The notes under the pieces are model-generated. The model had not been told where the DNA came from, did no database searches, and saw only the letters and a list, made by a program, of their open reading frames with translations. A DNA stretch of 24,283 nucleotides from contig JALHNR010000015.1 in NCBI GenBank assembly GCA_022843525.1, forward strand, positions 1-24,283, written 5' to 3'. A program made the translations under genes and the position numbers. Positions 5,835 to 23,972 of the stretch are shown piece by piece; the stretch's first letter is position 1; every line of letters starts with the position of its first letter. This stretch comes from Methylocystis sp. (GTDB lineage Bacteria; Pseudomonadota; Alphaproteobacteria; Rhizobiales; Beijerinckiaceae).

Positions 5835-5945
5835 ACCATTGCAATTCAGCTCCGATGGATAGCCCCGAGCAGGGCTTCCATCGGGGTGATCAGTTGTTAC
5901 CGCAACAGACGCAGCACTCGCCGAATAATGTTAGGAGAAACGCGA

Positions 5946-6632: not shown

Positions 6633-6704
6633 AATTTGGACCAGCGGCTGACGAAAGAAGCATTGGGAGCGGAACGCCATGGAAGATGGCATTCTCTAAG
6701 TTCT

Positions 6705-7018: not shown

Positions 7019-7057
7019 CGGCGACTCGGGAACTTTCACAGGGTGCTTTGCTTTTTG

Positions 7058-9409
7058 ATGCGCAGCGCCTGCCGGTTCGCTGCTGAGTTTCAGGAGGGCG
7101 TCGTGGAAAGCGCGCGTAAACTCTGGATCACGCTCATCGCCCTGTTGGTGCTCTCCTTTGCCGTGCTTCTGCTCATCGGCCGGGAAATAAGCGTCAAGGC
7201 GCCGCCTTTGCCCGAGCGCGTCGTTACGGAAACAGGACGCACGGTCTATACCCGTGCTGACATCGAGCGCGGGCGTCAGGTCTGGCAGTCCATCGGCGGC
7301 ATGCAGCTCGGCTCCGTCTGGGGCCATGGCGGCTACGTCGCGCCAGACTGGACCGCCGACTGGCAGCACCGAGAACTCGTCGCCATCCTGGACGCCTGGG
7401 CGCGCCGCGAGTTCGCGGCCGGCCGCTACGCTGATCTCAGCGAGGAGCAGCAGAGTTCTCTGCGGGGACGGCTGCGCCCGATGATGAGGCGAAACACCTT
7501 CGATCCGAAAACTGGGACAATTACTGTTTCTGAGGAGCGCGCTCAGGCGATCGACCTCGTCTCGAGCCACTATGAGAGCCTGTTCGGCGACGATCCGCGC
7601 AGTGCGGAACTTCGCGAGAACTACGCAATGAAGAACGGCACTGTCGACGACGCCGAGCATCGGCGGGCGCTAGGCGCCTTCTTCTGGTGGACCGCGTGGG
7701 CCGCGACCACGGAGCGGCCGGGAAGCCACGTCACCTACACCAACAACTGGCCGAGCGAACCGCTGGTCGACAACCGCCCGCCTGCGACCACCTTCATCTG
7801 GTCTGCGTTCAGCGTGGTATTCCTGCTTGCCGGCATCGGCCTGCTCGGCTGGCACCGCGCCGTCAGTCATGCACACGGCGCCGAGACGTGCGATGTGCCC
7901 GCGCGTGATCCGATGCGCAACGTAAGGGTCACGCCGTCCATGCGCGCGACCGCCAAATATTTTTGGGTGCTTCTTGCCCTGTTTCTCGTCCAGATCCTGT
8001 TCGGCGCCATAAGCGCCCATTACCAGGTCGAGGGGCAGCTGTTTTACGGCTACCCGATGGCGGAGATCCTCCCCTATTCGATCACCCGCACCTGGCACAC
8101 GCAATTGGCCGTGCTGTGGATCGCCACCGCCTGGCTCGGCACTGGGCTCTACATGGCGCCGGCGATTTCCGGGTACGAGCCCAAGTTCCAGGCGCTCGGC
8201 GTCAATGTGCTCTGGATCTGCTTGCTGATCATTGTGGTCGGCGCCTTCGCGGGCCAATGGCTCGCGGTCATGCAACGGCTGGGATTGGAACACAATTTCT
8301 GGTTCGGGCATCAGGGCTGGGAGTATGCCGATATCGGGCGTTTCTGGCAGTGGTTCCTTTTTATCGGCCTGCTGCTGTGGCTCTCCCTCGTCGGCCGCGC
8401 CTTGTGGCCGGCGCTACTGGCAAAAACTGAGTCACGCTCGATCGTCGCTCTTTTCTTCCTCTCGACGGTCGCAATTGGCCTGTTCTACGGCGCGGGGCTG
8501 ATGTGGAACGAGCATACGCATCTGTCGATGGTCGAATATTGGCGGTGGTGGCTGGTTCACTTGTGGGTGGAAGGGTTTTTCGAGGTGTTCGCCACCGCGG
8601 TCGTCGCCTTCCTGTTCACCCGCCTCGGCCTGGTCGCAGTCAAGCCGGCAACTTCGGCGGTGCTGTTCGCGACGATCGTCTTTATGGCCGGCGGCGTGAT
8701 CGGCACGCTCCATCATCTCTATTTCGCCGGCACTCCGATGTCGGTGTTGGCGCTTGGCGCCAGTTTCTCCGCGCTCGAAGTCGTGCCGCTCGCCTATATC
8801 GGCTTCGAGGCCTATGAGCATTGGCGGTTCTGCGGCGCCACGCCCTGGATGCAGCGCTATAAATGGCCCGTGCTGTTCTTCATCGCGGTCTCCTTCTGGA
8901 ATCTGGTGGGAGCCGGTCTGTTCGGTTTCCTGATCAACCCGCCGCTCTCGCTCTATTACATGCAGGGGCTCAACCTGACACCGCTGCACGGCCACACGGC
9001 GCTGTTCGGCGTCTATGGGATGCTCGGCATCGGCCTCGTGTTGTTCTGCCTGCGCGGAATGATGCCCGAACTCGTCTGGAACGAGAAGATCCTCAGCATC
9101 AGCTTCTGGTGCTTCAACGTGGGGCTGGGGATGATGGCGTTGTTCACGCTCCTGCCGCTCGGCACGCTGCAACTCCTTGCCGCGATCAATGAAGGTTATT
9201 GGTACGCCCGCTCTGAGCAGTTCATGCAGCAGCCGATCGTCGATCTTCTGGTATGGATGCGCGTGCCGGGCGACACGGTCTTTTCGATAGGCGCATTGGC
9301 CTTCGCCTGGTTCGTTGTCAGCCTGTGGCTCCGGCCGCGCCGCCAGCCTCATGAAGTGGAGCAGGAGGACAGGGAACTGGAGGCGGGACCGGCGAAGCGT
9401 GCGGCGTGA
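7058..9409 (+). CDS. norB: Quinol-dependent nitric-oxide reductase, single-subunit large NorB (qNOR/NorZ)
   Basis: The length is about 770 aa, as in qNorB. It has the N-terminal NorC-like periplasmic extension without a CXXCH haem motif. A heme-copper oxidase core with the His ligands follows: HLWVEGFFEVFATA, GTLHHLYFAG and FHQLDL-equivalents. Many transmembrane segments are present. The N-terminus aligns to the qNorB consensus: KLWITL, APPLPERVV, GGMQLGSVWGHGGYVAPDWTADW, TYTNNWPSEPL. The start is uncertain between the ATG at 7058 and the GTG at 7103; an AGGAGG Shine-Dalgarno lies just upstream of the latter. Confidence 0.9.
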   Translation: MRSACRFAAEFQEGVVESARKLWITLIALLVLSFAVLLLIGREISVKAPPLPERVVTETGRTVYTRADIERGRQVWQSIGGMQLGSVWGHGGYVAPDWTADWQHRELVAILDAWARREFAAGRYADLSEEQQSSLRGRLRPMMRRNTFDPKTGTITVSEERAQAIDLVSSHYESLFGDDPRSAELRENYAMKNGTVDDAEHRRALGAFFWWTAWAATTERPGSHVTYTNNWPSEPLVDNRPPATTFIWSAFSVVFLLAGIGLLGWHRAVSHAHGAETCDVPARDPMRNVRVTPSMRATAKYFWVLLALFLVQILFGAISAHYQVEGQLFYGYPMAEILPYSITRTWHTQLAVLWIATAWLGTGLYMAPAISGYEPKFQALGVNVLWICLLIIVVGAFAGQWLAVMQRLGLEHNFWFGHQGWEYADIGRFWQWFLFIGLLLWLSLVGRALWPALLAKTESRSIVALFFLSTVAIGLFYGAGLMWNEHTHLSMVEYWRWWLVHLWVEGFFEVFATAVVAFLFTRLGLVAVKPATSAVLFATIVFMAGGVIGTLHHLYFAGTPMSVLALGASFSALEVVPLAYIGFEAYEHWRFCGATPWMQRYKWPVLFFIAVSFWNLVGAGLFGFLINPPLSLYYMQGLNLTPLHGHTALFGVYGMLGIGLVLFCLRGMMPELVWNEKILSISFWCFNVGLGMMALFTLLPLGTLQLLAAINEGYWYARSEQFMQQPIVDLLVWMRVPGDTVFSIGALAFAWFVVSLWLRPRRQPHEVEQEDRELEAGPAKRAA

Positions 9410-9421
9410 TCCGCCACTTGC

Positions 9422-9820
9422 ATGGAAGCCTATTACTTCGAGATTCGCGCTGTCCACATCGCGGCGGCGCTCGCGAGCGGCGGCTTCTACCTTATGCGCG
9501 CGCTCGCTTTAAACTTGCTCGCCGCGTCATGGCCGCTGTCGATAGTCGCGCGGCTTGCCTCCTACTCGATCGATACCGTGCTCTTTACGGCTGCCCTCAT
9601 GCTGATGGCCGTCACGCGTCAATACCCGTTTGGTGACACTTGGCTGACCATGAAGGTCGTGGTCATGCTGCCGCTCTATATTTTCCTTGGTTACTGGGCG
9701 CTCCGAGCCAAGGCGTTCAAGTTGCGGTTGGCGGCGATGGCCGGCGCGATCGCGGCTTTTCTTTTGATTTATAGCATCGCACGCACGCACAGCCCGCGGG
9801 GCGTGTTTGCGCTTGGGTGA
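9422..9820 (+). CDS. Small 4-TM membrane protein, SirB2/YchQ-like
   Basis: This 132-aa ORF has four predicted hydrophobic helices. It resembles the SirB2 family, pairing AVHIAAALASGGFYLMRA against the HIIAAFASVALFLLRG-type. It starts 10 nt after the norB stop. Confidence 0.45.
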   Translation: MEAYYFEIRAVHIAAALASGGFYLMRALALNLLAASWPLSIVARLASYSIDTVLFTAALMLMAVTRQYPFGDTWLTMKVVVMLPLYIFLGYWALRAKAFKLRLAAMAGAIAAFLLIYSIARTHSPRGVFALG

Positions 9821-9861
9821 GAAACGTCGTCAGCTTGGTCGGCCTTGCCTCGAACCCGCCT

Positions 9862-11070
9862 TTACGTCGTTGGATGCAAGCGCTTCGTCGTCAACATCCC
9901 GAAATAGAGCAGCACGAAGAGCCCGTACGCCAAGCTCCACATGCCCCCGGCGGCGGCGATCGCAGCAAAGTAATACGCGCCCGTAAAAGGGGCGCCAATG
10001 CGCAGGATGGCCGCAAATGTTATGGCGATGTAGATCGCGGCCGTTCTCTGATCTGCGACGAGCGGGCGCCCGGTGTGGCCGCGCGTTGCACGAGTCATCA
10101 CCGCGAGCGTCATTGTTCCGATGGCGCCGACGGTGAGGGCATGCAGAGGCGCTGCAGAATCCGTGGCCCAGAATAGTTTGTTGCCGCCCATGAGCAGGAA
10201 GCCCAAGGGAACCCAGCCATATCCCAGATGCAGCACGAAGAGCATCGGTTCCGCCCGCGCGCTGACGCCGCGCCAGCGGATAAGACGTAGAAAGAGCGCC
10301 GCCCCGGCGATAATCAGGAGACCCGCCGTAGGCCCCGCGTCAGGGAACGCGGCCCAGGCGATGAGCGCCACAAGCGTCGCCGCCAGCGCGAAACGATCGA
10401 AAGCGCCGAAAGGCGCCGGCTCCACTTCAGCTGGCGAATTCTTCGCGAGCCAGTTGCGGGTGAAGCTCGGCGTGATGCGCCCCCCGATGATGGCGATGAG
10501 CATGACGAGGGTCGCGACGCCGACGCGGGCCCCGATGGCGCCCGTTGCGGCAAGGCCGATCGCTTCGAGATGCGTGAGCAAATTCCCGATAAAGAGAAGC
10601 GCAAGAGCGGCCACCATGGGCAAGTTGCGCCAGTTCCGCCCCGTGGCGATCTCGCGCGCGACAACGAAGATAAAGACCGCCGGGAAAGCGAGGTCGAGCG
10701 CCGCAGAGACGAGCGCAGGCGCACTATTTGAAGTCAGGACGGCGATGCGCCCCAGCAGCCAGAGAGCGACGAGGCCGGCGAGCGGCGCGCCTTGTAAGGG
10801 CAGTCGACCGGTCCAGTTTGGAATGGCCGTCAGCAAGAATCCCGCGACGACGGCGCCGCCAAAACCGAAGGCCATTTCATGCGCGTGCCAGAGAGAGGGC
10901 GCGAAGCGTGTCGGCAGTTCGGCCGCCGCCTCCAGATAGGCGATGGAGAGCGGCAGCCCGACAGCGGCCCAGAGCGCGGCAAAAAGGAAGAAGGGGCGGA
11001 AACCCGCTGAAAGAAAGATCGCCACAGGGTTTTGACTCGCCTGAGCGCGATATCGCGGAATTGGAGGCAT
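9862..11070 (-). CDS. nnrS: NnrS family heme-copper membrane protein (NO-response)
   Basis: The 402-aa protein is polytopic with about 12 transmembrane segments. It carries the NnrS hallmark N-terminus GFRPFFLFAALWAAV ... SLWHAHEMAFGFGGAVVAGFLLTAIPNWTG. It is convergent with the norB cluster. Confidence 0.85.
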   Translation of the reverse strand: MPPIPRYRAQASQNPVAIFLSAGFRPFFLFAALWAAVGLPLSIAYLEAAAELPTRFAPSLWHAHEMAFGFGGAVVAGFLLTAIPNWTGRLPLQGAPLAGLVALWLLGRIAVLTSNSAPALVSAALDLAFPAVFIFVVAREIATGRNWRNLPMVAALALLFIGNLLTHLEAIGLAATGAIGARVGVATLVMLIAIIGGRITPSFTRNWLAKNSPAEVEPAPFGAFDRFALAATLVALIAWAAFPDAGPTAGLLIIAGAALFLRLIRWRGVSARAEPMLFVLHLGYGWVPLGFLLMGGNKLFWATDSAAPLHALTVGAIGTMTLAVMTRATRGHTGRPLVADQRTAAIYIAITFAAILRIGAPFTGAYYFAAIAAAGGMWSLAYGLFVLLYFGMLTTKRLHPTT

Positions 11071-11084
11071 CGTTGACTTCCCCT
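10460..11084. repeat. Roughly 620-bp segmental duplication of the nnrS 5' region (second copy at 18703-19324)
   Basis: The two copies align by eye with only scattered substitutions and one in-frame 3-nt indel (gccgccgcctcc versus gccgtctcc). The homology stops about 15 bp upstream of the nnrS start codon at one end and inside nnrS codon about 204 at the other end. Confidence 0.75.
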
Positions 11085-11688
11085 TTGGAATTGATGATGG
11101 GCTGGCGCTCGGTCACTAACGCACACATCGAGCGCGCAGGTCGCGAGCCTCGCGTTAGAAGCCAGCGGAATGTCACGGAGGGGAGGGGAAGATCAATAGG
11201 CCTTCTCTTGCGACACCATTCCTTCTTCTACGCGGATTCCCCGCAGATTGCGAAGGCGTTGCGAGGAAAGCGTCGCGCGCCACCGGCGTGGGTTGCGCTC
11301 GGGGCGTTCCTCGCCCTTGTGACCGCGACGACATGGATATCGACGAGCTCTTCCGCGAACCGCCGCGGGCGGCTGAGCGATAGTGGCCGAATTCGGTAAC
11401 GCGATGGCCAAGCCGAACGCGCGTCACTGCCACTCGTGGTCAAATCGCGGCGCTCCCTGATCAGTGGTGCAGGATCCGTGCAACCTCATGATGGCGCTCC
11501 GGCCAGCGCGACAAGCATATCGACTCGGTCGTCACGAGCTCCATCAGCTGCGCCTCGGTAAAATCCTCTGTCGCTGCTGGCCTTTCAGGAATTACGAAAC
11601 ACCGCGCCGTCCCGCTGCTGTCCCACACCCTGATCTCCGTTTCCTCGGGCAGTGGACGCCAACCTCGGCGAGCACTTTCCGCGGCTCG

Positions 11689-11960
11689 CGGGCCGCGCGG
11701 GCGCGAAATACCGGATCGGCAATCCCAGCACCGGCCATGGGAAGCACGAGCAAAGCGAGCAGATGATCAGGTTGTGCACCTCGGGCGCGTTAGCGACGGC
11801 CCGCAGGTGCTCGCCCTCGGCGCCGGCCATTCCCTCGGGCAGGTCGAGTTTGGCAATTGCGGCCGGGGTGTCGGCCAGGAGCCGGGCCAAGAAGCCCGCG
11901 TCGGTCCACGCTCGCACGACGATCTTTCTTGCCGTTGAGCGGACGCGGTCCTGCGGATAC
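11689..11960 (-). pseudogene. Nitrile hydratase alpha-subunit-like remnant (N-terminus missing, C-terminus divergent)
   Basis: KIVVRAWTDAGFLARLLADTPAAIAKLDLPEGMAGAEGEHLRAVANAPEVHNLIICSLCSCFPWPVLGLP aligns to NHase alpha. It retains the metal-binding C(S/T)LCSC claw motif. The expected N-terminal roughly 80 aa are absent, and the frame is not alpha-like beyond GLPIRYF. Confidence 0.5.
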
Positions 11961-11972
11961 TTGAATGGCCGC

Positions 11973-12643
11973 TCATGCAGGTTCCTCCAAGTATATCTCG
12001 AACAGTTCGGCGTAAAGCGTCTGCGCGCCGGGTTCCGCGCGCGGACCCCACAATTCGGTCGGCGTGAACTCGACGATGTAGACGGGCATTGGATCGCCGA
12101 TGCCATCGCCAGTGTGCCAGAAGTAGACACAGTCGCCTTCGAGCACCTGCGCCACCGTGCCGCTCCGCCCCCGCAGATAGCCGGGCAGGCGAGTGTGCGC
12201 GCCAACTGGGACATTTGCGATCCGGACCCGCTGCCCGACGGCGAACTTCGAATGCGCGACGTCGCGCCGCGGGCTGTCGCCGTTACGTAGATATGCGATG
12301 ATCTGCTCGTCGATGGCTTCAGCCCGATCGGATCCCCTGGCCGAGCGCCGTCCGGCCTGGCCGCTTCGCCACGCAGTTAGCTTGTCCGCGAGGCTAATTC
12401 GTCCTCGCGCAGGTATCCTTGTCGACGAGGAATGGGGATGCCGCTGAGCCACTTCTCGTAGTAACGGAATTTGAAGTAGTCGAATGGATCCATCGCCTCG
12501 GCGCCAGCGCGCAGATCCGCCCATGTCCACATGTCGCGGAAGGCGGTCGGCACGTAGGCGATCGCGCAGGCCGGCACGGACGAGTCGAGATGGCCCGAGA
12601 GAGCCATCATCGCCACATAGATGCCGAATATCCGATTTCCCAC
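11973..12643 (-). pseudogene. Nitrile hydratase beta-subunit-like remnant, split by a frameshift
   Basis: The N-terminal piece (12377-12643: WTWADLRAGAEAMDPFDYFKFRYYEKWLSGI) sits in one frame. The C-terminal SH3-like piece (within 11973-12320: QRVRIANVPVGAHTRLPGYLRGRSGTVAQVLEGDCVYFWHTGDGIGDPMPVYIVEFTPTELWGP) sits in another. Both resemble NHase beta, and the frame changes near 12330-12420. Confidence 0.5.
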
Positions 12644-12817
12644 TGCCTCGGCAGGCTGGTTCAGAAAAAAGGGTCAATTCGGATCTGGAGCGCTTTTCCG
12701 ACGTTGTCCAAAATAGGCTCAGAGTTGTGGAAGGCAAAGGCCGCAACACGCCGACGGTGGAATCGGAGGATCAGGGACGACGCGCGCGGAAGATGCGGAG
12801 CGGCGGCGAATGAGCGC

Positions 12818-13130
12818 ATGACGCCTAAAGAAGTTGTCGCGCTGGTTCTTCAAGGCGGCGGCGCGCTCGACGCCTATTAGGCGGGCCCGTTCGAGGCGCT
12901 CGCGGCGGGGGATATTGTCCGCAGTGGCTCGCCGGCATTTCGATCGGCGCGATCAACGCCGTGATCATTTGCCGCAATCATCCGGAAAAGCGCGTCGAGC
13001 GCCTGCGCGCCCTTTGGGAACGCGTGATAAGCAGGACGCCCCTTCCCTTCAATCTGGACGGATTCCTCGGTCCCATTTTTGCCAACGCCAGCGCAAATCC
13101 CCTAGCGACGGTTGGCGCGCCCGGTTTTTA
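12818..13130 (+). pseudogene. Patatin-like phospholipase N-terminal remnant (nonsense codon plus frameshift, truncated)
   Basis: MTPKEVVALVLQGGGALDAY is followed by TAG where Gln (AYQAG) is expected. After a roughly 1-nt frame change near 12910, the sequence continues WLAGISIGAINAVII, which is the GxSxG nucleophile elbow. The remainder of the gene is absent, and an ECF sigma gene on the opposite strand follows. Confidence 0.5.
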
Positions 13131-13261
13131 GGCTGCGTCTACCGCCTCCGGCCCTCTTATGGCCCTATTCAGCGCCCGGCTATCCCACCTCATATCTTCC
13201 CTTCCGAATAGTTCCATCAAGCAGACTTATGCGGCTGAGGTACGGGGCTCTCGACCCGCCG

Positions 13262-13975
13262 CTACTCTTCGCTGGCCAGCCCTTCCGCTTTACAGCGTTC
13301 GAGGACACCGGTCACGATGCGGTCGCACCGCGCGCCGGCGAAGGCGAAAACGTCGCTTAAGCCCGCGTCCATCTCCTGGGCAAGGCTTTCGCGCAACAGG
13401 CTGCTAGCTCGGAAGAAGCGCGTACGCACCGTCGCCTCGGGGATCTCCAGCGCCTCGGCGGTTTCTTCGACGCTCATCTCCTCGATCGCGCGCAGCATGA
13501 ACACCGTCCGGAAGGCCTCCGGCAGAAGGTCGATGCGCGCCTCCAAGAGCTTGCGCATCTGAACCCGCATCATCGATTGTTCTGGGCTACGCTCAGGCTC
13601 ATCGTTCAGCGCTGTCTGGGCTTCAGATTCATGGGGCGTCATGGCAGCTTCCAAAGGAATGATCTGGGCACTCTTTCGCCACAAGCGGCCGAGCGCTTCA
13701 TGGGTCGTGATCCGCACAAGCCAGGTATAGAGCTTGCTCTCGGCGCGATAGTTTCCAAGCGCGCGCCACGCCCGCAGATAGGTGTCCTGGACGACATCCT
13801 CCGCCTCCGCATCATTGTGCACGATGCTACGCGCCGTACGGAACAGAAGCTGGTTGTGCCGTCGCATGATGGCTTCGAACGCCACTCCGTCACCGTCAGC
13901 GGCGCGCGAGATCAGCTCTGCCTCCGGCGTGGTTTTCGATAAGCTATTTGCCGCCTGACGCTGAAGTGATTGCAT
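13262..13975 (-). CDS. ECF-family sigma factor with a C-terminal extension
   Basis: ELISRAADGDGVAFEAIMRRHNQLLFRTARSIVHNDAEAEDVVQDTYLRAWRALGNY matches region 2. LPEAFRTVFMLRAIEEMSVEETAEALEIPEATVRTRFFRA matches region 4. About 40 extra C-terminal residues follow, including two Cys (ARCDRIVTGVLERC). A GGAGG Shine-Dalgarno precedes the ATG at 13975, and the ORF's upstream extension reaches 13987. Confidence 0.8.
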   Translation of the reverse strand: MQSLQRQAANSLSKTTPEAELISRAADGDGVAFEAIMRRHNQLLFRTARSIVHNDAEAEDVVQDTYLRAWRALGNYRAESKLYTWLVRITTHEALGRLWRKSAQIIPLEAAMTPHESEAQTALNDEPERSPEQSMMRVQMRKLLEARIDLLPEAFRTVFMLRAIEEMSVEETAEALEIPEATVRTRFFRASSLLRESLAQEMDAGLSDVFAFAGARCDRIVTGVLERCKAEGLASEE

Positions 13976-14195
13976 TTGCGCCTCCATTCATTGAACAGGT
14001 AGGCTACCGGCGTGCCTTTGCCGGCGCTGCCGCTATAGGGATCGCGCGCGCCGCGTCTTCCGGATCGCGCAGCAATTCCATCATGCCCGCGACCATCGCG
14101 AAAGCGATCAACGCGTCGATGAGTATCACGGCTCCTTTCCGGGCGTACGGGCGATGGCGGGGCGCCGTTCCGTCGTCGCCCTTGGCGTTGTCCGA

Positions 14196-14609
14196 CTAAT
14201 GTTCGAACTTCGTTGGGAAGGCGGCGATCAAACCGTTGGTCAGGGCATCGGCCAGCATCATCATATGAGCCTCCGCCTTTCCATATTCGGCGATGCCGTT
14301 GGCATATTTGCCCTGCAAAAGCCCCGTGGCGTAGACCACAGTTGTGTCGATATGCCCCTTGAGCCTGTCGCGTACCTTGGTTTGCGGCCAGTTCTCGTTC
14401 GCCTTGGCGAGAAAATCGGCAATTTCCTGCGCGTTTGCGTAGGCGGCTGCGACGGACTTGTCGGTGGCCGGCTTGTCGCCGGCCTTGGCGGCTTTCACGA
14501 CCTCGACGGCTGCGCCGATATGCTCCTGAAGCAGCTTGGTGAGCGCGTTACCAGCTGCATCGCCATAGAAGGGCTTGATAGCGTCGCCGATATCGGGCTG
14601 GTTCTGCAT
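14196..14609 (-). CDS. Hypothetical Cys-free helical (probably periplasmic) protein, 137 aa
   Basis: The ORF has no recognisable family. Its predicted secondary structure is alpha-helical, and it is Ala/Lys-rich with a Met-rich stretch ([10 protein letters not shown]). Its ATG overlaps by 1 nt (TGATG) the stop of an upstream 43-aa ORF that is purely a signal peptide. Confidence 0.45.
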
Positions 14610-14740
14610 CAGTCGCGCTGCATGTTAACGGAATAGGCGGCGGTCGGGCGGAAAACGGGAGTAGCCATAAGTGCGGCGGCGAAGCCCGCAAGGGCGAGGC
14701 GGCGATTAACGGCCGGGTGGAACATCTGCACGCGTGTCAT
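14609..14740 (-). other. 43-aa ORF encoding only a Tat/Sec-like signal peptide, probably the frameshifted 5' part of the downstream gene
   Basis: [43 protein letters not shown] has a strong AAGGAGAA Shine-Dalgarno 6 nt upstream. It ends 1 nt into the next ORF's ATG. A signal peptide with no mature domain is implausible as a standalone gene. Confidence 0.35.
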
Positions 14741-14809
14741 GACGGTTCTCCTTGGTCGATCAGTTTGCGTAGCGGCCGGTGTGATCGACTCGATGCGGCC
14801 CCGTACATT

Positions 14810-15137
14810 CGATGCGACCCTTTCGCGCTGCGTTCCCGTTGCACGAGATTTTTTTGGGGGAAAAGAGAAAGCTTCCGAGCAGGTCGAGCGGCAGAGTACG
14901 GTCAACTCTAAAACATCCTGCGACAACACAAGCGCTGGATCGTAAACGGGCTGCGGAGGCGCTAAAACTCATAGCGCCTCCGCTATCGCACCAGCGTGAA
15001 TTTACGGGGGTTCCCGACGGTACGATATTTCTGTACAGAGCGGTAGCTGCCGCTCAGTTTTTCTCCGCACTCGCGCCCTGTATATTAGATGCGACCATTC
15101 CGCGCTGCGTTCCCGATGCAGGAATATTTTTGGCTTT
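14810..15137. repeat. Two copies of a roughly 50-bp direct repeat about 280 bp apart (14810-14862 and 15089-15137)
   Basis: gtacattcGATGCGACCcTTtCGCGCTGCGTTCCCGtTGCAcgAGATTTTTTTGG is compared with gtatattaGATGCGACCaTTcCGCGCTGCGTTCCCGaTGCAggAATATTTTTGG. On the minus strand both read GGGAACGCAGCGCG.AA.GGTCGCATC. Confidence 0.5.
14943..14974. other. Strong hairpin (12-bp perfect stem, 7-nt loop)
   Basis: GCGGAGGCGCTA-aaactca-TAGCGCCTCCGC sits in the intergenic region between the split secreted-protein gene and DUF488. Confidence 0.4.
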
Positions 15138-15231
15138 AGGCGTGTGGCCGGGTTTGTTCGCTTGGGCGCGAGCATCGAGGCGTTGCTCGAAGCTCTGGCG
15201 TCGAAGCGCTGCCAATGCTGCGAGCGGCGGA

Positions 15232-15759
15232 CTACGGATAGATAACGGCGCCGTCAGGTTGAATGACCGCGCCTGGAGTGAGATGGGCCGGCTCCAGACG
15301 ACCTTCCCCCAAAATGTGGAAAACGGTCTCCCCGCTGGCGATAAGATAATCGGCGACGATGCGGCGGTGGCATCGCCACCATACGGCTTCCGAACACATG
15401 ATGGTACAGCGCCGCTTGCGTCCTCTGTCCAAGAGGTGTTGGAGGCCTGCCTGAAACTGTGTAGTAAGCGCATAATCGGCGTAGTTGTGGAAACTCTCGT
15501 TCGTCCAGAAGGCGTTGACAGTCGGAGATATGCCGCGTGACCTTCCACGAAGGCCACCGAGGGCAGCCATATGTTCATAAGAGATGGCGACGGCCGCCAA
15601 GGCGCCGGGAAGCGTGTTCTTGTCAAACTGTGGATTGGTTCGTGACTTCGGAATCGTTCTGATGTCCGCGACAAGAGCGATATCGGCTTCGCGCAGCAGA
15701 CCGATGAAAGCCTCGAGGGTTCGGTTGGAATGGCCGATGGTGAAAAACGGAAGCTTCAC
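15232..15759 (-). CDS. DUF488 family protein
   Basis: FTIGHSNRTLEAFIGLL...IALVADIRTIPKSR...F...L...L...GISYEHMAALGGLRG ... CSEAVWWRCHRRIVADYL matches the conserved DUF488 (YeaO-like) blocks. Confidence 0.75.
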   Translation of the reverse strand: MKLPFFTIGHSNRTLEAFIGLLREADIALVADIRTIPKSRTNPQFDKNTLPGALAAVAISYEHMAALGGLRGRSRGISPTVNAFWTNESFHNYADYALTTQFQAGLQHLLDRGRKRRCTIMCSEAVWWRCHRRIVADYLIASGETVFHILGEGRLEPAHLTPGAVIQPDGAVIYP

Positions 15760-15771
15760 GCGCGGCCTTCG

Positions 15772-15981
15772 TTATGCATAGTCGAGCGCGCCGCCCTTAT
15801 GCGCTGCGATGTGATCTGTCTTGTCGCTTTTGATTTCGTACTGGGGATCGTCTTTCGACGCGTGATGCGTGTGGCCTTTATAATCGAAATCTCTAATGTG
15901 AATGGCGATGATAGTCCCCGACACGCGTCCGGCCTCGGAGTTCCAGCTCACATGATCGCCGATCTTAAACTTCCGTGCCAT
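15772..15981 (-). CDS. DUF2945 (HVA1/Tudor-like) small protein
   Basis: The 69-aa sequence MARKFKIGDHVSWNSEAGRVSGTIIAIHIRDFDYKGHTHHASKDDPQYEIKSDKTDHIAAHKGGAL matches the DUF2945 consensus (KFK.GD.V.WN...G...G.I...H......G.....AS...P.Y.I..D....). Confidence 0.7.
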   Translation of the reverse strand: MARKFKIGDHVSWNSEAGRVSGTIIAIHIRDFDYKGHTHHASKDDPQYEIKSDKTDHIAAHKGGALDYA

Positions 15982-17063
15982 CGCTGCGTCCTCCCGGTTC
16001 CAAGAAGCGCTTCTCCCAAACAGATGGATCCGAAGTCTACGCCCGGCGCCAGCACCACGGAAGCCTAGGTCGTCGGCAGCCGGAAGGTGAAGGTCTCCAG
16101 AAAATTCAGTTCGACGGCCGTGCTGGAATAGCTCGTGTAACCAACGGATATGTCCCGACCGATATCTAACTCGAAGTCACCGCTGCAGGTCGTGCGCACG
16201 ACGCTGCCTTCAATGGCGGGCGCCAGATGATCCCTCCGTCCACCATACGCTCAAGATGGTGAAAAACCGGATAGCCCTGGACGCTTCCGCCACTCGCGGC
16301 GGTGTAGGTGTCTAGCCCGAGCACGAGCGCGTACGGACCGTGTCGCCGGCGAGCCGCAACTGGCTGACCCGCCTGAGCGAGGCGCTTGGGTAACCCGGAC
16401 GTTGGAAGGCAGCACAACGCCCTGATTGCTGCTGGCCTCGCGAATGGTGAATGCCTGCCGCAGCGTACCCATCGGACACAGCGCGATCCTTTGCAAAGGG
16501 GATTTCCCGGGCACCCAATCTGAATCCATTGCGCCGCGCTCCACGTCGTCGATCGCTTGCCGCGTCAGACCGTCTGGAATACGATCCAGAACGACTTGCC
16601 GACCCTGAAACAGCAGATGACGACGGGGACGAAGATGACTGCTGAATGGGACAGGTTCACGCTACGGAAATTGCCATGCTGAGGCTGATCCTGATAGCAA
16701 ACAGCCACGTTACCATTTTGCCAAGCCTTTGTATCAACCCGCCAATTCTGAATCCAACAATGGGCACGCAATTAGCCGATGAAGACGGCAAAGATGCAGC
16801 TTGCGTGATCGGTGAGCAATTTTCTGTCTTTCACCAAGGATGGCGTCCCGTCTGATGTTCTTCCTGCTACTTTCACCATTGACAGGCTTAGGTCCGACTC
16901 AGTTATCCTTGTCACGGCGATCGAGTTCGCGCTCAACCGCCTGCGGCTGATGACCCCTGCTCTACATTGTGTCGGAGTCCGTCGTTGCTCTAGTCGACAA
17001 CCGCGGATGATGTCGCGTAATACCGCCCAGTAGCGATTATAGAACGGAGCGAGGGTGGCGATC

Positions 17064-18647
17064 ATGGATAGGCCGGCCCGAATGATAGGCTGGCGATTCC
17101 TGCTGCTGAATGGCGCGGCGGGGGCGGCGAATGTCGTCATGCTCTCGAACGTTCCGGGCTACACGGTGCTCGCGCCCTATGCCGCCGGCAGTCTGCAGGG
17201 CGTGACGCCGAGCTTCGGCACCTGGGCGACCACCGACCACATGGTGGGAATCGCGCTCGGCCTGCCACTGTCGCGGTGGTTCTCCGGGCGCTTCGGCGAC
17301 TATCGCGTGCTGATCGGCGCGCTCGTTGTCTACGCCATCTTCTCGCTGATGTGCGCGGCGAGCGAAACCATCTGGTTTTTCGCGCCGATGCGCTTTCTCC
17401 TCGGACTTGCCGGCGGCGTCGCCCTTCCGCTCGCCCAATCCGTGACGCTTGCGCAATATCCGGATCACCAGCGCACGCTCGGCGTCGGCTTCTGGGGCGT
17501 CATGAGCATGGCGCCCTTCACCATCGGCGTATTCATGGGCGGCTTCTGGGCCGAATATTTCGACTGGCGCTGGCTATTTTATTCCAACGTCTTGGTCGTG
17601 ATGCCCGTCGCGGCGATCATCGCCGCGCTGTTCTACCGGCGCGGCTTTCAGCGCCGCATGACGCGCTTCGATACGATCGGCTTCATTCTGCTCGCCGCGG
17701 TGCTGCTCGGCGTGCAGACGATTCTCAACATGGGCAATGATTTCGACTGGTTCGCGGAGCCTCTCCTCGGATGGCTGCTGCTCGTCGTGCTGCTGGCGCT
17801 GCCGATGTTCATCTTTTGGGAGTTCGGCGAACGACGGCCCGCGCTAGACCTGCGTCTGTTTCTGCATCGCAACTTCGCCATCGCGACTTTCTGCTCGATC
17901 GTCGGCTTCCTGGTGATTCAGGGCCTGCTCTCGGTGTTCATCGTGCAATTGCAGGTGCTGCTCGGCTACACGTCCTCGCTCGCCGGCATGGTCTATCTGA
18001 TCATGATTTTTCTGGCGATGGCGGCCGCGGCCGTCGTGCATGAAATCACGAGGAACGTCGACGCGCGACTGATCGTGTTCCTCAACTTCATCGGTCTCGC
18101 AGTGACCTTTGTCTGGCTCGGACAATACGACAAGAACGCCTATTTCGATGACGTCAAGACGCCGATGTTCTTTTTCGGCTTCTCGCTCGCGATGTTTTTT
18201 GCGCCGCTCGCTACCCTCGCCATGACCGGGCTCGTCGGCGAACGACTGATCCGCGCGGCGGAAGAGCTCGCGATGCTGCGCACCGTGGCCGGCGCCCTGG
18301 GCATCTCGCTGCTCGGCGTTCTCTTCTTCCGCCGAACGCCGTTCCATCAGCTCGATCTCGCCGATCATTTCGGCGGACGGCGCTTCGCCTCGCTCGACCT
18401 GCTCGCCACTTTCCTGGATCGCATGCAGGCGATGGGCATGTCGCCCACCGCCGCGCAGAGCCGCGCGGCGCAGCTCATTCGACAGCAGGCGTCGATCCTC
18501 GCGCTCAACGACGTCTTTCTGTTCGGCGCAATGGCGTTCATCCTGCTCTCGGGAGTCGTCTGGCTCGCCTATCCAAGCTACGCGTCCAAGAAGCGCAAAC
18601 AATCGCTAACACGGCTTTCCGCCGAGGAACTGATGGAGCAGCCCTGA
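17064..18647 (+). CDS. MFS transporter, 14-TMS drug:H+ antiporter (DHA2/EmrB-like) type
   Basis: The protein is about 528 aa with about 14 hydrophobic segments. It carries MFS motif A (SGRFGDYRVLIGAL), typical GxxxG-rich helices and a PMRFLLGLAGGVALP block. The start is either the ATG at 17064 or the GTG at 17055. Confidence 0.85.
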   Translation: MDRPARMIGWRFLLLNGAAGAANVVMLSNVPGYTVLAPYAAGSLQGVTPSFGTWATTDHMVGIALGLPLSRWFSGRFGDYRVLIGALVVYAIFSLMCAASETIWFFAPMRFLLGLAGGVALPLAQSVTLAQYPDHQRTLGVGFWGVMSMAPFTIGVFMGGFWAEYFDWRWLFYSNVLVVMPVAAIIAALFYRRGFQRRMTRFDTIGFILLAAVLLGVQTILNMGNDFDWFAEPLLGWLLLVVLLALPMFIFWEFGERRPALDLRLFLHRNFAIATFCSIVGFLVIQGLLSVFIVQLQVLLGYTSSLAGMVYLIMIFLAMAAAAVVHEITRNVDARLIVFLNFIGLAVTFVWLGQYDKNAYFDDVKTPMFFFGFSLAMFFAPLATLAMTGLVGERLIRAAEELAMLRTVAGALGISLLGVLFFRRTPFHQLDLADHFGGRRFASLDLLATFLDRMQAMGMSPTAAQSRAAQLIRQQASILALNDVFLFGAMAFILLSGVVWLAYPSYASKKRKQSLTRLSAEELMEQP

Positions 18648-18689
18648 GAGACCGTTTGAGAATGGTTGCGACGGAGATAGGGGCGTGAT

Positions 18690-19310
18690 TCAAGCTCGGG
18701 ATTTGAAGCTCGGCGTGATGCGGCCCCCGATGACGGCGATGAGCATGACGAGGGTCGCGACGCCGACGCGGGCCCCCAAGGTGCCCATAGCGTCAAGGCC
18801 CATCGCTTCGAGATGCGTGAGCAAATTCCCGATGAAGAGAAGCGCGAGAGCGGCAACCATGGGTAAGTTGCGCCAGTTCCGCCCCGTGGCGATCTCGCGC
18901 GCGACAACGAAGATAAAGACAGTCGGGAAAGCGAGATCGAGCGCCGCGGAGAAAAGCGCAGGCGTGCTATTCGAAGTCAGGACGGCGATGCGCCCAAGCA
19001 GCCAGAGAGCGACGAGTCCGGTGAGGGGCGCGCCTTGTAAGGACAGCCGACCAGTCCAGTTTGGAATAGCCGTCAGCAAAAAGCCCGCGACGACCGCGCC
19101 GCCAAAACCGAAGGCCATTTCATGCGCGTGCCAGAGAGAGGGCGGGAAGCGTGTCGGCAGTTCGGCCGTCTCCAGATAGGCGATGGAGAGCGGCAGCCCC
19201 ACGGCGGCCCAGAGTGCGGCAAAGAGAAAGAACGGACGGAATCCCGCTGAAAGAAAGATCGCCAGAGGGTTTTGACTCGCCTGAGCGCGACATCGCTGAA
19301 TCGGAGGCAT
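18690..19310 (-). pseudogene. nnrS: Truncated second copy of nnrS (N-terminal roughly 203 aa only)
   Basis: The protein is near-identical to the NnrS N-terminus: MPPIQRCRAQASQNPLAIFLSAGFRPFFLFAALWAAV ... WHAHEMAFGFGG ... GGRITPSF. It then diverges and stops after KSRA. The nucleotide homology to 10460-11084 is evident by eye. The remaining about 200 codons are absent. Confidence 0.7.
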
Positions 19311-20223
19311 CGCTGACTTCCCCGGAATGAACGCTCCGCGCCATCTAATGAATTTACTCGGTTCTTTCCTACTTCCTGTTGCGGCGGTCGCTACACAGCA
19401 AGCAGACGCGGCCTCCTTGTAATTTGTCCCCGAGCCAAGGGATCGGCTCGAGATGGAGACCTTTGCCCGAATCGCGCAGCGTGGGTAACGATACATCGAA
19501 GAGGGGTCTGCGTCATTTTACAGGATTTGCATTGCCAAAGCGGTCTTCTGCATCTCGATAGCGCCTGACAAAGAAATCGAATTTGGGCTCGGGCACGGAG
19601 TGGCCGAAACCATCACCCTCCGCCGCATCGCTCTGTAGTGTGTCGCGTGAATGACTTCGGCGAGACGGATTTCATGGATCCGCTCCATCAAGGCGCTGAA
19701 TTTCGGCTTCCTTCTTGAGCCAGAAGCGCCCGATTTGCTCGGCGATAATACGCTCGATCTCGGGCACGAGCCGAATGCGCCTTCCGGCGTTCCTCGCTGT
19801 TGTTGTGCGAGACTCGAAATAAGTCGTGTGCACAGAAAACGCGACGCCATACGAAAGTAAGGTTGACCTTGGGATATCGAATCGCCTGAGGCGGCTCTCG
19901 AAACAGGTCACGCCCGCTGGCGACCGCCGTTACAACGCACGGATTTCATCATTTTGCCCAGAGACATAAACCTCGACGCCGTCGAGACGCGAAACGATCG
20001 GTCGGATGCTTTCGGCGGGCAGCATTGAAAAGGCCGTAGAAAGCGCATCGGCGATCGTCGCGGTCTGAGCGATCCATTCCGCTTTACAGCCTGTGAAGAT
20101 GAAGCGTCGCTACCTCGCCGACGGCGCGATCACTTGCGCCACGCCGGTCATGGCGGCCGAAGAGCTGGGCGCACGTCGACTTGTCGTGCTGCCGACCGGT
20201 CACGCCTGCATGCAGGTTCGTGA

Positions 20224-20445: not shown

Positions 20446-21220
20446 AACGCTGTCACGGCTGTCGGCTGGCGTCCCTCGCTGGCATCTGCCGAATTGGGCC
20501 GGTTAGATGAACGAACGGGGTGACAAAAACTGTCGATGTTGCGGAGCCGCTCAAGGCGATTAGGCGCCATAACCTGGCGCAACAACTTTCGTCTGAATTT
20601 CCAAACGGCGGCGAATGGCGCCGCCGGCTCATGTTTCTCGCTTCTTCCGTTCCTTTCGTGCGCCTCTTCTGATTGCGTCATCGCCGGCGCAAGCCGAGTG
20701 CTCGTCTGTTCAGATCTTGACCGGGATCGCCGCTGTTTTTGCACTCCGCATCGTTGAGCCGCTTCGTTTATCGGTCACCTTCGTACGCCGCGGAATTGCG
20801 GGCGTCGTTGTTCCCCAAAGTCGTTTTGCCTGGCGCAGTGCCTATTCTTTGCCGGTTGGACCCGTGATTGTGGACTGCCGTGAGATCGAAGCGAGCCCCT
20901 CGTCAAGGTTCACGAGGTCTGATTTCCCGACGATCGGAATTCGCAGCGACTTTCCCATCGCTCTCCGTTGCGCCCGCCCGCCTCCGTTGCATGGCGTTTG
21001 GTCCTATGGCCGCAGTCGCCACCCAAAACCCTGCGGCCGCAACGATTTTCCCCTTGGCGCTCAAGCGCCAATTCCTCGCGCAACAAAATCGCCGCGGCCT
21101 TAGGGTCCTCCGCTTCTCACTTCGGCCTCGCGCTTTCCGGCGCTTCGGTTATGGCGTCGCCTTTTGCGGCCATCACGGACAGCCATCGCAACCGGGGCAA
21201 ACGCCCCAACGATGGAGAGC

Positions 21221-21593
21221 ATGATGAAGACTTTCGCGGAATTCCAAATCCTCGGCCGCATCAACAAGGCAGACGACACGCGTTTCGATCTGCGCCAACT
21301 ACGCATTCAAGGACCGCAACGGCGAGACGAAGGACAAGCCCTATTGGAACGAGATTACGATCTGGAGCGAGAGCGCGCGCAAATACGTCTGTGACTATGC
21401 GAAGCCCGGCGATCTCGTTGTAGCGCGCGGCACGCTGAAGCAGGGAAGCTTCGAGACGGACGGCGAGAAGGTCTATACTGTCGACCTCAACTGCGACGAC
21501 TTCTCGATCCTCGCCTCCGCTAAGATGGACAAGTCCGACGAGGAAACCGAGGCGGCGCCCGAGATGACGAAGAAGACCGCAAGACGCAAGTGA
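21221..21593 (+). pseudogene. ssb: SSB-like OB-fold single-stranded DNA-binding protein, apparently frameshifted
   Basis: Frame a (MMKTFAEFQILGRINKADDTRF) resembles the SSB N-terminus (ILIGRLG.DPELRY). Frame b, from about 21285, continues ICANYAFKDRNGETKDKPYWNEITIWSESARKYVCDYAKPGDLVVARGTLKQGSFETDGEKVYTVDLNCDDFSIL plus an acidic tail. Compare SSB (ATNERWKDKNGE..ERTEWHRVV.W...AE....YLKKGS.V.VEG.L..R.W). A GGAGAG Shine-Dalgarno precedes the ATG at 21221. Confidence 0.5.
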
Positions 21594-21600
21594 ATCGAAC

Positions 21601-21625
21601 GAGGGGCGGCGAACGCCGCCCCTCG
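21601..21625 (+). terminator. Perfect GC-rich hairpin immediately after the ssb-like stop (intrinsic-terminator-like)
   Basis: GAGGGGCGGCG-aac-GCCGCCCCTC forms an 11-bp perfect stem with a 3-nt loop, 8 nt after the TGA at 21591-21593. No strong U-tract follows, which is common in high-GC genomes. Confidence 0.5.
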
Positions 21626-21658
21626 TCCAGCTCGTATATCTTGCATAGGGCGGTCCGA

Positions 21659-21905
21659 GTTTGTCCCGGACAAACGTTTTAGACTAGGCCTTGCCTTTAG
21701 AGCTCCCCAGAGCACGACAAGACTTTTCAGCAGTTTGCCCAAGGCAAACTTTTCGCCGCTCGCCGCGCAGGGGCGGGCCGAGTTTGTCCAGGACAACCTT
21801 TTTCGGCGACGCCAAATGTTGATCTCAGATTTTTCCAAGCGGTGAGATTGAGTTTCCCTGGGGCAAACATTCCCGCTTGGTTGCTGGAGTTTGTCCGGGA
21901 CAAAC
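21659..21905. repeat. Array of five related palindromes GTTTG(T/C)CC-N1-3-GG(A/G)CAAAC (parS/iteron-like) upstream of parAB
   Basis: Copies lie at 21659-21675 (GTTTGTCCcGGACAAAC), 21733-21749 (GTTTGCCcaaGGCAAAC), 21782-21797 (GTTTGTCCaGGACAAC), 21852-21868 (GTTTCCCtgGGGCAAAC) and 21889-21905 (GTTTGTCCgGGACAAAC). Each is preceded by (G/C)AG and followed by a T-tract. Copies 1 and 5 are additionally embedded in a longer roughly 70-bp direct repeat (..GGCCTTGCCTTyAGAGCyCCC..). Confidence 0.55.
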
Positions 21906-22084
21906 TTTTTTGGCGCCGGGCCTTGCCTTCAGAGCCCCCGAAAAGGCGACAAAGCTCGTGAGTCCAGCTTGCCCGGGGTAAGGACTTCGACGCCCTGGCG
22001 GGCGCAAATGACCGCTTGCCTCTCTTACCCCCGTGAAATTTTGCAGTGGTTCTCATTCGGCGCGCCGGGGCAAAAACTCCGGCG

Positions 22085-22098
22085 TCGAATCGATTCGA
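22085..22098. promoter_or_regulatory. 14-bp perfect palindrome TCGAATCGATTCGA about 70 bp upstream of parA (candidate operator)
   Basis: The 14-mer equals its own reverse complement. An overlapping GAATCGA repeat extends it (gtcgaatcgattcgaatcgac). It is positioned in the parA promoter-proximal region. Confidence 0.4.
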
Positions 22099-22168
22099 AT
22101 CGACAGAGCCAGAGGAGACAGACTATGACGGCCGCCAATCGAGATTGTCGTGACGACCGAGCAGCCTC

Positions 22169-22917
22169 ATGAAGGCGCTCGTCGTGAACAATGAGAAGGG
22201 CGGCGTCGGCAAGAGCACGATCGCCGTGCATCTCGCCTGGTATTTTGCAGAGCGCGGTAAACGCGTTCTTTTCCTCGACCTCGATCCACAGAGCAATGGC
22301 ACAACGACGCTTGCGGCGCATGCTGTTGGGATCGACGCCGCTGCCCTCTTTGCGCGCCCGGTCGCCGTTCCATCGATGGCGAGCGCTGGCATTCGGGTCC
22401 TGGGCGGCAGCGCCGCCTTGCGCGGCATCGTCGCCGTAGACGGCAAGCTAATCGAACAATTCCGCTCCAATATTAAAGACGCGTCGCGCGCCTATGACAT
22501 TGCGGTCATCGACACGCCGCCAACCTTCGGCGTGCGCAATCTCGCGGCGTTGATCGCAGGTCAGTTCGTGCTGGCGTCGATCGACCTCGACGACTACGCC
22601 TCGAGGGCATTGAAACGCTGCTCAAGCACATCCTCGGCGTGAAGCAGAAATACAATTCCGGCCTCGAGATCCTCGGACTGATCCCCAATTGGCTGCAGAC
22701 AACCTCGCCGCACCAGCGGGAGAATTTGAAGAGCCTCGTCCAGAGGTTCGGCACGAAATACCTGTTCGACGGCGTGATCCCGCAACGCTCGTAGATCGGC
22801 GAGGCGTTGGCGGAGAAAAAGCCGGTCTGGAACTTACCGAAGACAGCGGCGCGCGAGGCCGGCCGCGAGATGCGCATCGTATTCGACAAGCTCGCGACGA
22901 AAATGGAGATGGCATGA
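22169..22917 (+). pseudogene. parA: ParA/Soj-family partition ATPase carrying a 1-nt frameshift and an in-frame TAG
   Basis: The N-terminus MKALVVNNEKGGVGKSTIAVHLA has the deviant Walker A. After DLDDY the ParA sequence continues only in the -1 frame: LEGIETLLKHILGVKQKYNSGLEILGLIPNWLQ...VIPQRS. A TAG at 22792-22794 follows, then IGEALAEKKPVWNL, which matches the canonical VIPRNVRLSEAPSHGKPV. The frame switch is consistent with a missing C in the CCC run near 22600. Confidence 0.7.
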
Positions 22918-23972
22918 GCTACGCTCGCAAACTCGATGATGTCGCGTTGCTGCTGGACGAACTCGAGGGCCTCGAATCGTCTGCCTCGAGCGGCAAGCCT
23001 CTCGAAATCCCGCTTTCGTCAATCGAGGAAGACCCAGATCAGCCGCGGCGCGCTTTCGACGCCGAGACGCTGGAGGAGCTCGCGGCCTCAATCCGGGAAC
23101 GCGGCGTCCTTCAACCGATCGGCCTCACTCCAGTGGGTCTCAATGGAATGCACCGAACCGTCTTCGGGGCGCGGCGCTTTCGGGCGGCGCAACTCGCTGG
23201 CCGCGCGACGATCGCGGCGTTCATTCATTCGGGAGAGGCCAGCGACCCTTACGACCAGATGATCGAGAATATCCAGTGGGACGACGTTTGGGCCGCGGAT
23301 ATCGCCGCATTCATTGCTTCCCGCCTTGCGGCGGGCGAGAAGCAGAAGGACATCGCGCTGCGGCTCGGCAAGGACAAGAGCTATATCGCCATGTATGCGG
23401 CTGTCGCGCAAATGGCGCCCGTGCTGCGAGAGCGGTTAACGACCTCGCCGATCCGCGCCGTCTATGAATTGCATCAGATGTGGAGAAAGTTTCCGCGGGC
23501 CGTCGAGGCGTTTTGCGCGCAACATGACTCGTTCACCCGCGTACAAGTGGTCGCATTTTGCGAAGGTCTGAGCGGTCGGCCGCCGCGGACTGATGATTCG
23601 CCGCTGAGTGACGAACTGCATGACGCAGCCAATCCACATGACGACGGGGCCTTGCCGGGCGCGGATCGAAAGTTGAATTGCGCTCCGCAGGGACGGAAGC
23701 GTCGAACTCGGTCGGCTAGATCCATCCGGATGCGCTCGCGACGAAGCGCGGCGCCATTCGACACGACCAGAGCGACGGGCGTCCGAAGTGGCGCTGGCGA
23801 CGTTACGTGTCGAGCATGGGCAGCGTTACGGGCGGCTGTTGTTGGAGTGCGGATCGAGCAAGAGCGAGGCGCACGGTCTGGTCTTCTCTTCGAAGACGAC
23901 GGCACGGTCGAGGATGCGCCTCTCGCTGCGTTGCGGCTCGTGTCGCTGAAGATAGGCCTAGCGAATTCGTGA
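22914..23972 (+). CDS. parB: ParB/RepB-family partition protein
   Basis: The ATG overlaps the parA stop (ATGA). The ParB box is present: EIPLSSIEEDPDQPRRAFDAETLEELAASIRERGVLQPIG ... FGARRFRAAQLAG. An HTH-like middle region follows. The C-terminal roughly 120 aa are Arg/Ala-rich and of low complexity. Confidence 0.65.
   Translation: MSYARKLDDVALLLDELEGLESSASSGKPLEIPLSSIEEDPDQPRRAFDAETLEELAASIRERGVLQPIGLTPVGLNGMHRTVFGARRFRAAQLAGRATIAAFIHSGEASDPYDQMIENIQWDDVWAADIAAFIASRLAAGEKQKDIALRLGKDKSYIAMYAAVAQMAPVLRERLTTSPIRAVYELHQMWRKFPRAVEAFCAQHDSFTRVQVVAFCEGLSGRPPRTDDSPLSDELHDAANPHDDGALPGADRKLNCAPQGRKRRTRSARSIRMRSRRSAAPFDTTRATGVRSGAGDVTCRAWAALRAAVVGVRIEQERGARSGLLFEDDGTVEDAPLAALRLVSLKIGLANS

Follow-up and report, generated by a model that had tools for sequence, protein, structure and literature searches.

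Plasmid RK2 carries about 12 O_B sites. O_B reads TTTAGC(C/G)GCTAAA and is bound by KorB (PMC2680271), a CTP-dependent sliding clamp with proximal and distal operator sites at promoters around the plasmid (PMC11790492). On the IncP-9 plasmid NAH7, parS_NAH (TTTCTCGCATGCGAGAAA) lies upstream of parA, is bound by ParB in EMSA, and has been linked to the control of conjugation genes (PMC12421886). On the IncU plasmid RA3, the order korA-incC-korB-orf11-parS is followed by mobC-nic, and KorB acts at parS and at operators that include mobCp (PMC7414963).

Here, we analyze a 24,283-nucleotide stretch of Methylocystis DNA (the window) in which palindromes of the form GTTTG(Y)CC-N-GG(R)CAAAC are repeated near a par operon. 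The palindromes exceed chance, are conserved at homologous par loci, and change together with ParB. We conclude, at a probability of roughly 0.8, that a KorB-family ParB binds and loads at this local cluster of sites, which is similar to parS and O_B and serves as a centromere and probably as an autoregulatory operator. The kind of element, a plasmid centromere/operator of a KorB-type ParB, is known, and the feature itself is without description in the literature searched: no paper contained the motif strings, and none joined Methylocystis, plasmid, and ParB.

Results

Five palindromes lie between ssb and parA

The five palindromes of the original prediction were found again. A pattern search of the whole 24.3-kb window located all five at 21659-21905 and none elsewhere (Table 1), and 0.00 matches were expected from 100 dinucleotide-preserving shuffles; thus, the array is not a product of chance. 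A looser scan in which two mismatches were tolerated gave one extra match, at 6339, that is unrelated. The centers had been described as varying from 1 to 3 nt, but all five sites are 17 bp long with equal half-site spacing, and the apparent variation was an artifact of how the arms were drawn. Half-site spacing differs between ParB clades, not inside the window array.

Table 1. Coordinates of features in the par segment of the window. Related loci are designated by L numbers.
Feature	Coordinates	Strand	Description
ssb pseudogene	21224-21593	+	14-nt deletion at 21268 versus all relatives; Pfam SSB on intact homolog
GC-rich hairpin	21599-21626	+	Directly after ssb; 13-bp arms, -27.9 kcal/mol, z -5.75; equivalent in relatives
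Site 1	21659-21675	.	GTTTGTCCCGGACAAAC; perfect 17-bp palindrome; identical copy at equal position in L005 and L007
Companion repeat	21687-21720	+	GGCCTTGCCTTTAGAGC...GACAA / GGCCTTGCCTTYAGAGC...GCGACAA; after site 1; second copy at 21919-21952, after site 5
Site 2	21733-21749	.	GTTTGCCCAAGGCAAAC; 7-bp outer arms perfect, one inner mismatch; L005 counterpart is GTTTGCCCAGGACAAAC
Site 3	21782-21798	.	GTTTGTCCAGGACAACC; one mismatch
Site 4	21852-21868	.	GTTTCCCTGGGGCAAAC; degenerate, two mismatches; same degenerate copy in L007 (GTTTCCCTAGGGCAAAC) and L093
Site 5	21889-21905	.	GTTTGTCCGGGACAAAC; perfect palindrome followed by T6; perfect site nearest parA, center 272 bp from the parA ATG
Candidate sixth site	21967-21983	.	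GCTTGCCCGGGGTAAGG; four mismatches, strongly degenerate; kept in L007
Conserved block	22028-22049	+	CCCC(T)GTGAAATNTNGCAGTGG; relatives read CTGTGAAATCTCACAG; between array and parA
parA pseudogene (Walker-type ParA)	22169-22917	+	1-nt deletion at 22601 and in-frame TAG ending at 22794
parB (KorB family)	22914-23972	+	ORF open but damaged

The sites are irregularly spaced (74, 49, 70, and 37 bp), and spacings of 74-79, 48-49, 67-70, and 36-37 bp recur among the window, L003, L005, and L007. As the five-site layout is common to the window and L005, it is not a recent duplication. Moreover, site 4 was degenerate ancestrally, since L007 and L093 share its degenerate copy, and a sixth site is possible, if weak. 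L007 lacks 125 bp between two repeats. A larger direct repeat of roughly 70 bp had also been claimed. The repeat exists, but its identity is just ~65-80%, in families D1 (43 nt, three copies) and D5 (34 nt, at the two positions of the companion repeat). We note that the companion repeat ends in a half-site-like GACAA(A)G and that similar blocks follow a site in L001, L003, L005, and L007.

The T-tracts reported beside the sites are real, lie on the parA side, and are conserved in relatives. Across the 17-bp class of sites (see below), T occupies positions +1 to +5 in 14-20 of 23 sites and the tract is always on the parA side. Palindromes followed by T-tracts could act as weak intrinsic terminators or attenuators and thereby shield parAB from read-through out of ssb, and indeed, sites 2 and 5 fold better than shuffled sequences (z of -2.4 and -2.9). 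The stems are weak, however, at -4.5 to -12 kcal/mol, and sites 1, 3, and 4 fold no better than shuffles. The 1-nt center forces a 3-nt loop, a terminator scan called none of the sites, and a far stronger hairpin, likely the end of the ssb transcript, already follows ssb. Finally, sites of the 15-bp class keep the palindrome without the T-tract. Termination is therefore a very improbable function of the array, and we note that the one-sided T-tract is also not accounted for by the ParB-site model. Separately, a search for known RNA families in Rfam at a permissive E value gave only a sub-threshold match to sX6.

The sites are conserved at, and confined to, homologous par loci

Using a ParB alignment as the query, we retrieved 71 loci, the closest 19 of which belong to Methylocystis, Methylobacterium, Methylorubrum, and one alphaproteobacterial MAG. 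The order parA-parB-mobC-relaxase is kept in all 19, and ssb lies upstream in most. On plasmids of Methylocystis and Methylobacterium, the conserved module consists of ssb, sites, parA, parB, mobC, relaxase, and T4SS genes, and it belongs to the conjugative backbone of Methylocystis repABC megaplasmids. The window reads, from left to right, ssb, GC hairpin, array, conserved block, parA, and parB, and the predicted placement of the array between ssb and parA recurs in relatives with the same module order.

Within L001-L018 (12-18 kb each), the GTTTGYC...GRCAAAC palindrome is found only in the spacer upstream of parA, at 1-5 clear copies per locus. L019 has a single site, directly after parB and upstream of mobC. 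The proposed centromere (parS) reading fits, as sites occur at every homologous par locus examined, are confined there, and have a form that tracks the ParB clade.

Further copies were sought in an entire replicon, the complete 204,886-bp M. parvus plasmid pMpar-2. Exactly two perfect copies were found, both in the ssb-parA spacer (166,800-166,895), and matches at up to two mismatches equaled the shuffle background. pMpar-2 is a repABC replicon with repABC at 1-3773, ~38 kb from the motif, and the whole-plasmid scan found no perfect copy near repABC. The repABC plasmids of alphaproteobacteria carry parS sites that are GTT...AAC palindromes of similar length, and the array had been likened to them. 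That identity was rejected, as it needs a different protein, RepB, whereas the cognate protein here is of the KorB family, and the motif and repABC are unlinked in pMpar-2.

The original prediction also offered iterons or a replication origin, and the array is a dense repeat cluster in a noncoding region of a plasmid. The units, however, are palindromes rather than direct repeats, and their spacing is irregular. Moreover, no rep gene is adjacent in the window, the pMpar-2 replication genes are distant from the motif, and neither an AT-rich region nor DnaA boxes were seen. We consider a role as iterons or origin to be extremely unlikely.

A motif-first search with an exact 21-nt pattern against metagenomes returned 20 loci. 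In eight of these, ssb, parA, or parB is present and the sites occupy the same spacer; the eight comprise the seven multi-site loci other than L087, plus one further locus. No ParB was found in the 11 single-site loci. ORFs were scanned in two of the 11, L091 and L101, and the sites fell in ordinary genes, e.g., fumarase. We therefore rejected the single-site matches as par sites.

Separately, L087 (Ga0099798_10317) contains ~25 tandem 20-bp units with the same palindrome (GTTTGCCCSGGGCAAAC) at 3705-4346. The tandem array is flanked by a long inverted repeat, the contig is ~50% GC and poorly coding, and no match to the ParB profile was found in the 13 kb of L087.

Site class covaries with a KorB-family ParB

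Genes for a Walker-type ParA and for a ParB with ParB_N and HTH domains, both damaged in the window, were identified next to the array by Pfam and tblastn. By its sequence, the ParB is a member of the KorB family. Pfam matched ParB_N and the KorB HTH domain in the intact ParB homolog, and KorB_C was matched as well in intact relatives. The best PDB relative was RK2 KorB (8qa8; E value, 7e-29), with 1r71 also matching, and tblastn against plasmids reached KorB-annotated genes of PromA-like plasmids and of a Neisseria conjugative plasmid. Residue R209 is the equivalent of KorB R240 and is invariant in relatives, which matches the conserved outer half-site. KorB T211 maps into a 3-residue gap, so no residue-to-base argument is possible. 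The KorB sequence used for the mapping agrees with the PDB alignment, and the residue numbers T211 and R240 are reportedly those of Khare et al. 2004.

Three classes of half-site spacing coincide with three ParB clades. Sites of 17 bp (GTTTGYCC-N-GGRCAAAC) accompany ParB proteins at least 59% identical to that of pMpar-2, sites of 15 bp (GTTTGYC-N-GRCAAAC) accompany proteins ~50% identical to it, and sites of 16 bp (GTTTGCCCGGGCAAAC) accompany proteins 41-53% identical to it. The predicted recognition helix varies by site class as well (GKDKSYIAMYA, AKSKGFVAMHA, and GKDRSFVAMHA). The 17- and 15-bp classes are not separated by SSB (78-89% identity), MobC (69-84%), or relaxase (73-81%), and they are separated slightly by ParA (84-92% for 17 bp versus 78-80% for 15 bp). 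In the 15-bp class, SSB, MobC, and relaxase are 73-89% identical to their pMpar-2 counterparts.

Another regulator, KorA/TrbA-like or a host factor, could bind the palindromes such that linkage to parB is incidental. A second element (CTGTGAAATCTCACAG) and the companion repeat share the spacer, and thus other factors probably do act there. Site class, however, follows the ParB clade, whereas SSB, MobC, and relaxase fail to separate the two Methylocystis classes and ParA differs just slightly. In addition, no candidate regulator gene is annotated in the module, and the site shape fits known KorB-family sites (PMC2680271, PMC12421886). We think it unlikely that such a regulator is the main ligand, and ParB remains the better candidate.

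One locus looked like a counterexample to the covariation. L093 pairs 17-bp sites with a ParB of the 15-bp class, but it was set aside, as an ISL3-type transposase junction has removed parA, so that ssb and array of the 17-bp class are now joined to a parB of the 15-bp class. The rearrangement junction of L093 is at the site cluster. We note that an ISL3-like transposase ORF (7349-8320) begins directly after the third palindrome of L093, in place of parA.

The generic palindrome scan was controlled on IncP-like loci, where it recovered O_B (TTTAGCSGCTAAA). Other KorB-like loci each had a repeated palindrome of their own, e.g., TTTGTCATGACAAA, TTGGACATGTCCAA, and CTTGCACCGTGCAAG. Consensus O_B was found only in the IncP-like control loci. 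Both the different motif sequence and the two purely local perfect sites of pMpar-2 set the array apart from a global regulon of the RK2 KorB type.

Site position moves with the genes, being after parB in L019 and before both parA and mobC in Bradyrhizobium and Agrobacterium. In the latter, KorB-like par modules on Bradyrhizobium pNK6c (L080; 3146 and 5280) and an Agrobacterium plasmid (L081; 3093 and ~5640) each place one 14-bp palindrome ahead of parA and nearly the same sequence ahead of mobC (TTGGTTCAAACCAA and TTGGTTTGAACCAA; TTTGCTCAAGCAAA). The pairing suggests coupled control of partition and mobilization genes. In a separate observation, the MAG Site1BBin15 contains two modules of the same class, L005 and L007.

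The par module of the window has decayed

The par segment of the window is ~80% identical to pMpar-2 and 92% identical to L007, a Methylocystis MAG contig. parA had been called a pseudogene, and both of its lesions bear this out (Table 1); Pfam matched AAA_31/CbiA in the intact homolog. It had also been asked whether ParB still uses the array, but the parB ORF is itself damaged. Relative to L007 and other relatives, parB has lost 2 nt at 23692 and gained 2 nt at 23885. These changes, 193 nt apart, cause ~64 codons to be misread, which cover part of the linker and part of the C-terminal dimerization domain. In addition, the window ParB carries R122W, the loss of an arginine that 18 relatives and RK2 KorB all retain.

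Judged from the sequence, the inactivation of ssb, parA, and parB looks real and specific to the module, because the large cargo ORFs elsewhere on the contig remain open and because neither the 14-nt deletion in ssb nor the TAG substitution in parA is a homopolymer error. With all three genes inactivated, the array in the window probably is a relic or else is usable only in trans with a ParB of the same class. The par module of the window thus should be annotated as decayed, not as functional in partition.

The cargo itself, at 1-19323, is an accessory island that matches M. rosea plasmids NZ_CP044330 and NZ_CP034088 at 96.6% identity. The island encodes the large subunit of an NO reductase, NnrS, a multicopper oxidase, sigma factors, and an MFS transporter. 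Similarity to the M. rosea plasmids stops ~1.5 kb ahead of the conserved block upstream of ssb.

Other conserved elements flank the array

The conserved block between the array and parA may be a promoter, an operator, or a 5'-UTR hairpin. It takes the form CCCCTGTGAAATCTCACAGTCG (CTGTGA-N4-TCACAG) at ~598-622 of L008 and occurs at equivalent positions in L001-L019, across all three ParB clades. In loci of the 15-bp class, it starts ~9-12 nt past the last site. In L001 and L003, variants of the block keep their pairing only via G-U, which would fit an RNA hairpin of the parA leader better than a binding site for a protein.

Two further features lie near the start of parA. A perfect 14-bp palindrome, TCGAATCGATTCGA, occupies 22085-22098, ~75 bp ahead of the parA ATG, and a related palindrome, CGATTCGAATCG, is present in L003, L005, and L007 and not in L001. 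At 22126-22173, an upstream ORF of 15 codons ends in ATGA and overlaps the parA start. Its ATG is in frame with parA in L003 and out of frame in L001, and the ORF is either a variable N-terminal extension of ParA or a noncoding leader.

Upstream of ssb, a noncoding segment of ~296 nt (20930-21225) surpasses ssb itself in conservation among 11 loci. Taken as single-stranded DNA of the ssb template (-) strand, the segment is predicted to fold into one long imperfect hairpin (-77 kcal/mol; z of -3.8), and its alignment has 92 predicted pairs with one compensatory pair. No -35/-10 pair was identified in the segment. Because the genes read toward the presumed oriT, upstream of mobC, the segment may serve a leading region as a single-strand promoter of the Frpo type (compare PMC9849209).

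Discussion

How the array might work can be proposed by analogy with RK2 KorB. In relatives with an intact module, a ParB dimer would recognize each 17-bp palindrome through its KorB-type helix-turn-helix, with the arginine conserved with KorB R240 probably reading the outer half-site GTTTG/CAAAC. Bound to CTP, ParB would close as a clamp and spread across the ssb-parA spacer, and the Walker-type ParA would then move the nucleoprotein complex to achieve partition. The same complex would probably repress a parAB promoter located between the array and parA, resulting in autoregulation. A scan of the ssb-parA spacer found no sigma-70-like promoter, and the conserved blocks, inspected by eye, had no convincing -35/-10 pair; because no promoter was located, we only infer the operator role.

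Whether partition is the main purpose of the sites can be questioned. Alternatively, the sites may chiefly be operators of a conjugative or establishment module, at which ParB clamps would silence ssb, parAB, and perhaps mobC once transfer is complete, in the manner of KorB in RK2 and RA3, while RepAB partitions the plasmid. We regard this alternative as possible, if doubtful. pMpar-2 already has repABC for partition, which speaks against the array as its sole centromere. Modules of the same class also co-reside in single isolates, namely, Methylocystis sp. B8 (L010 and L013) and H62 (L009 and L015), an arrangement that is awkward for a sole centromere on account of incompatibility. If the co-resident modules are on different replicons, they argue against a sole centromere or imply that cross-talk is tolerated. 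The only site of L019 is upstream of mobC, as is the second palindrome of the distant relatives, and there is precedent for such control, as RA3 KorB regulates mobCp (PMC7414963) and NAH7 ParB activates transfer genes from parS (PMC12421886). Moreover, as in leading regions, the genes of the module read toward the presumed oriT and a hairpin precedes ssb. The Methylocystis loci lack a site at mobC, however, and in relatives ParB always comes with an intact Walker ParA that is conserved at 78-91%, which argues for segregation. Operator function also overlaps the reading of the array as ParB loading sites, and the two are not mutually exclusive.

We speculate on a joint reading that goes further and that we consider rather unlikely as a whole. 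Sister clades of KorB-like ParB may have changed specificity by altering the distance between half-sites, such that GTTTGYC...GRCAAAC is used at 15, 16, or 17 bp. If so, new identities of centromeres or operators could arise through spacing. The system may in addition be mainly an establishment/transfer switch of a conjugative leading region and not the centromere of the plasmid. For co-resident plasmids, arrays that have lost their genes, as in the window, could then remain in place as decoys or titration sites.

The array, as a cluster of probable ParB loading sites, provides a testable candidate centromere/operator for a widespread and unstudied conjugative backbone of methanotroph megaplasmids (Methylocystis, Methylobacterium), the traits of which include genes for denitrification, hydrogenase, and methanobactin. 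The most interesting aspect of the finding is the series of 15-, 16-, and 17-bp spacings. Three half-site spacings in closely related ParB clades make up a compact natural series for the evolution of ParB/KorB specificity.

Relative to parS of the repABC plasmids, the central bases misfit the quoted consensus, GTTNNCNGCNGNNAAC, and both the protein and the map position differ. NAH7 resembles the module in having a TTT...AAA inverted repeat upstream of parA, but the sequences are otherwise unrelated beyond their TTT/AAA ends, and NAH7 has six dispersed sites and a KorA-like ParR. As in RA3, the partition module directly adjoins mobC and the relaxase gene. RA3 has korA, and its parS is downstream of korB, whereas the cluster here is upstream of parA except in L019.

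The module differs from RK2 in several respects. The site sequence is not that of O_B, and site length is 17, 15, or 16 bp versus 13 bp. The sites form one local cluster, with just two perfect copies on pMpar-2, whereas those of RK2 KorB are dispersed around the plasmid, a difference that counts against too close an analogy. ParB has the 3-residue gap around T211, and, unlike in RK2 with its korA, no gene is annotated between ssb and parA in L001 or L002. ParB shares the three-domain architecture of ParB_N, KorB HTH, and KorB_C with RK2 KorB, its best solved relative, and keeps the R240-equivalent arginine invariant. A short Walker ParA, IncC in RK2, is encoded immediately upstream of it. Finally, the site, like O_B, is a TTT...AAA palindrome around a single-base center (TTTAGC-S-GCTAAA in RK2 and GTTTGTC-N-GACAAAC in the 15-bp class).
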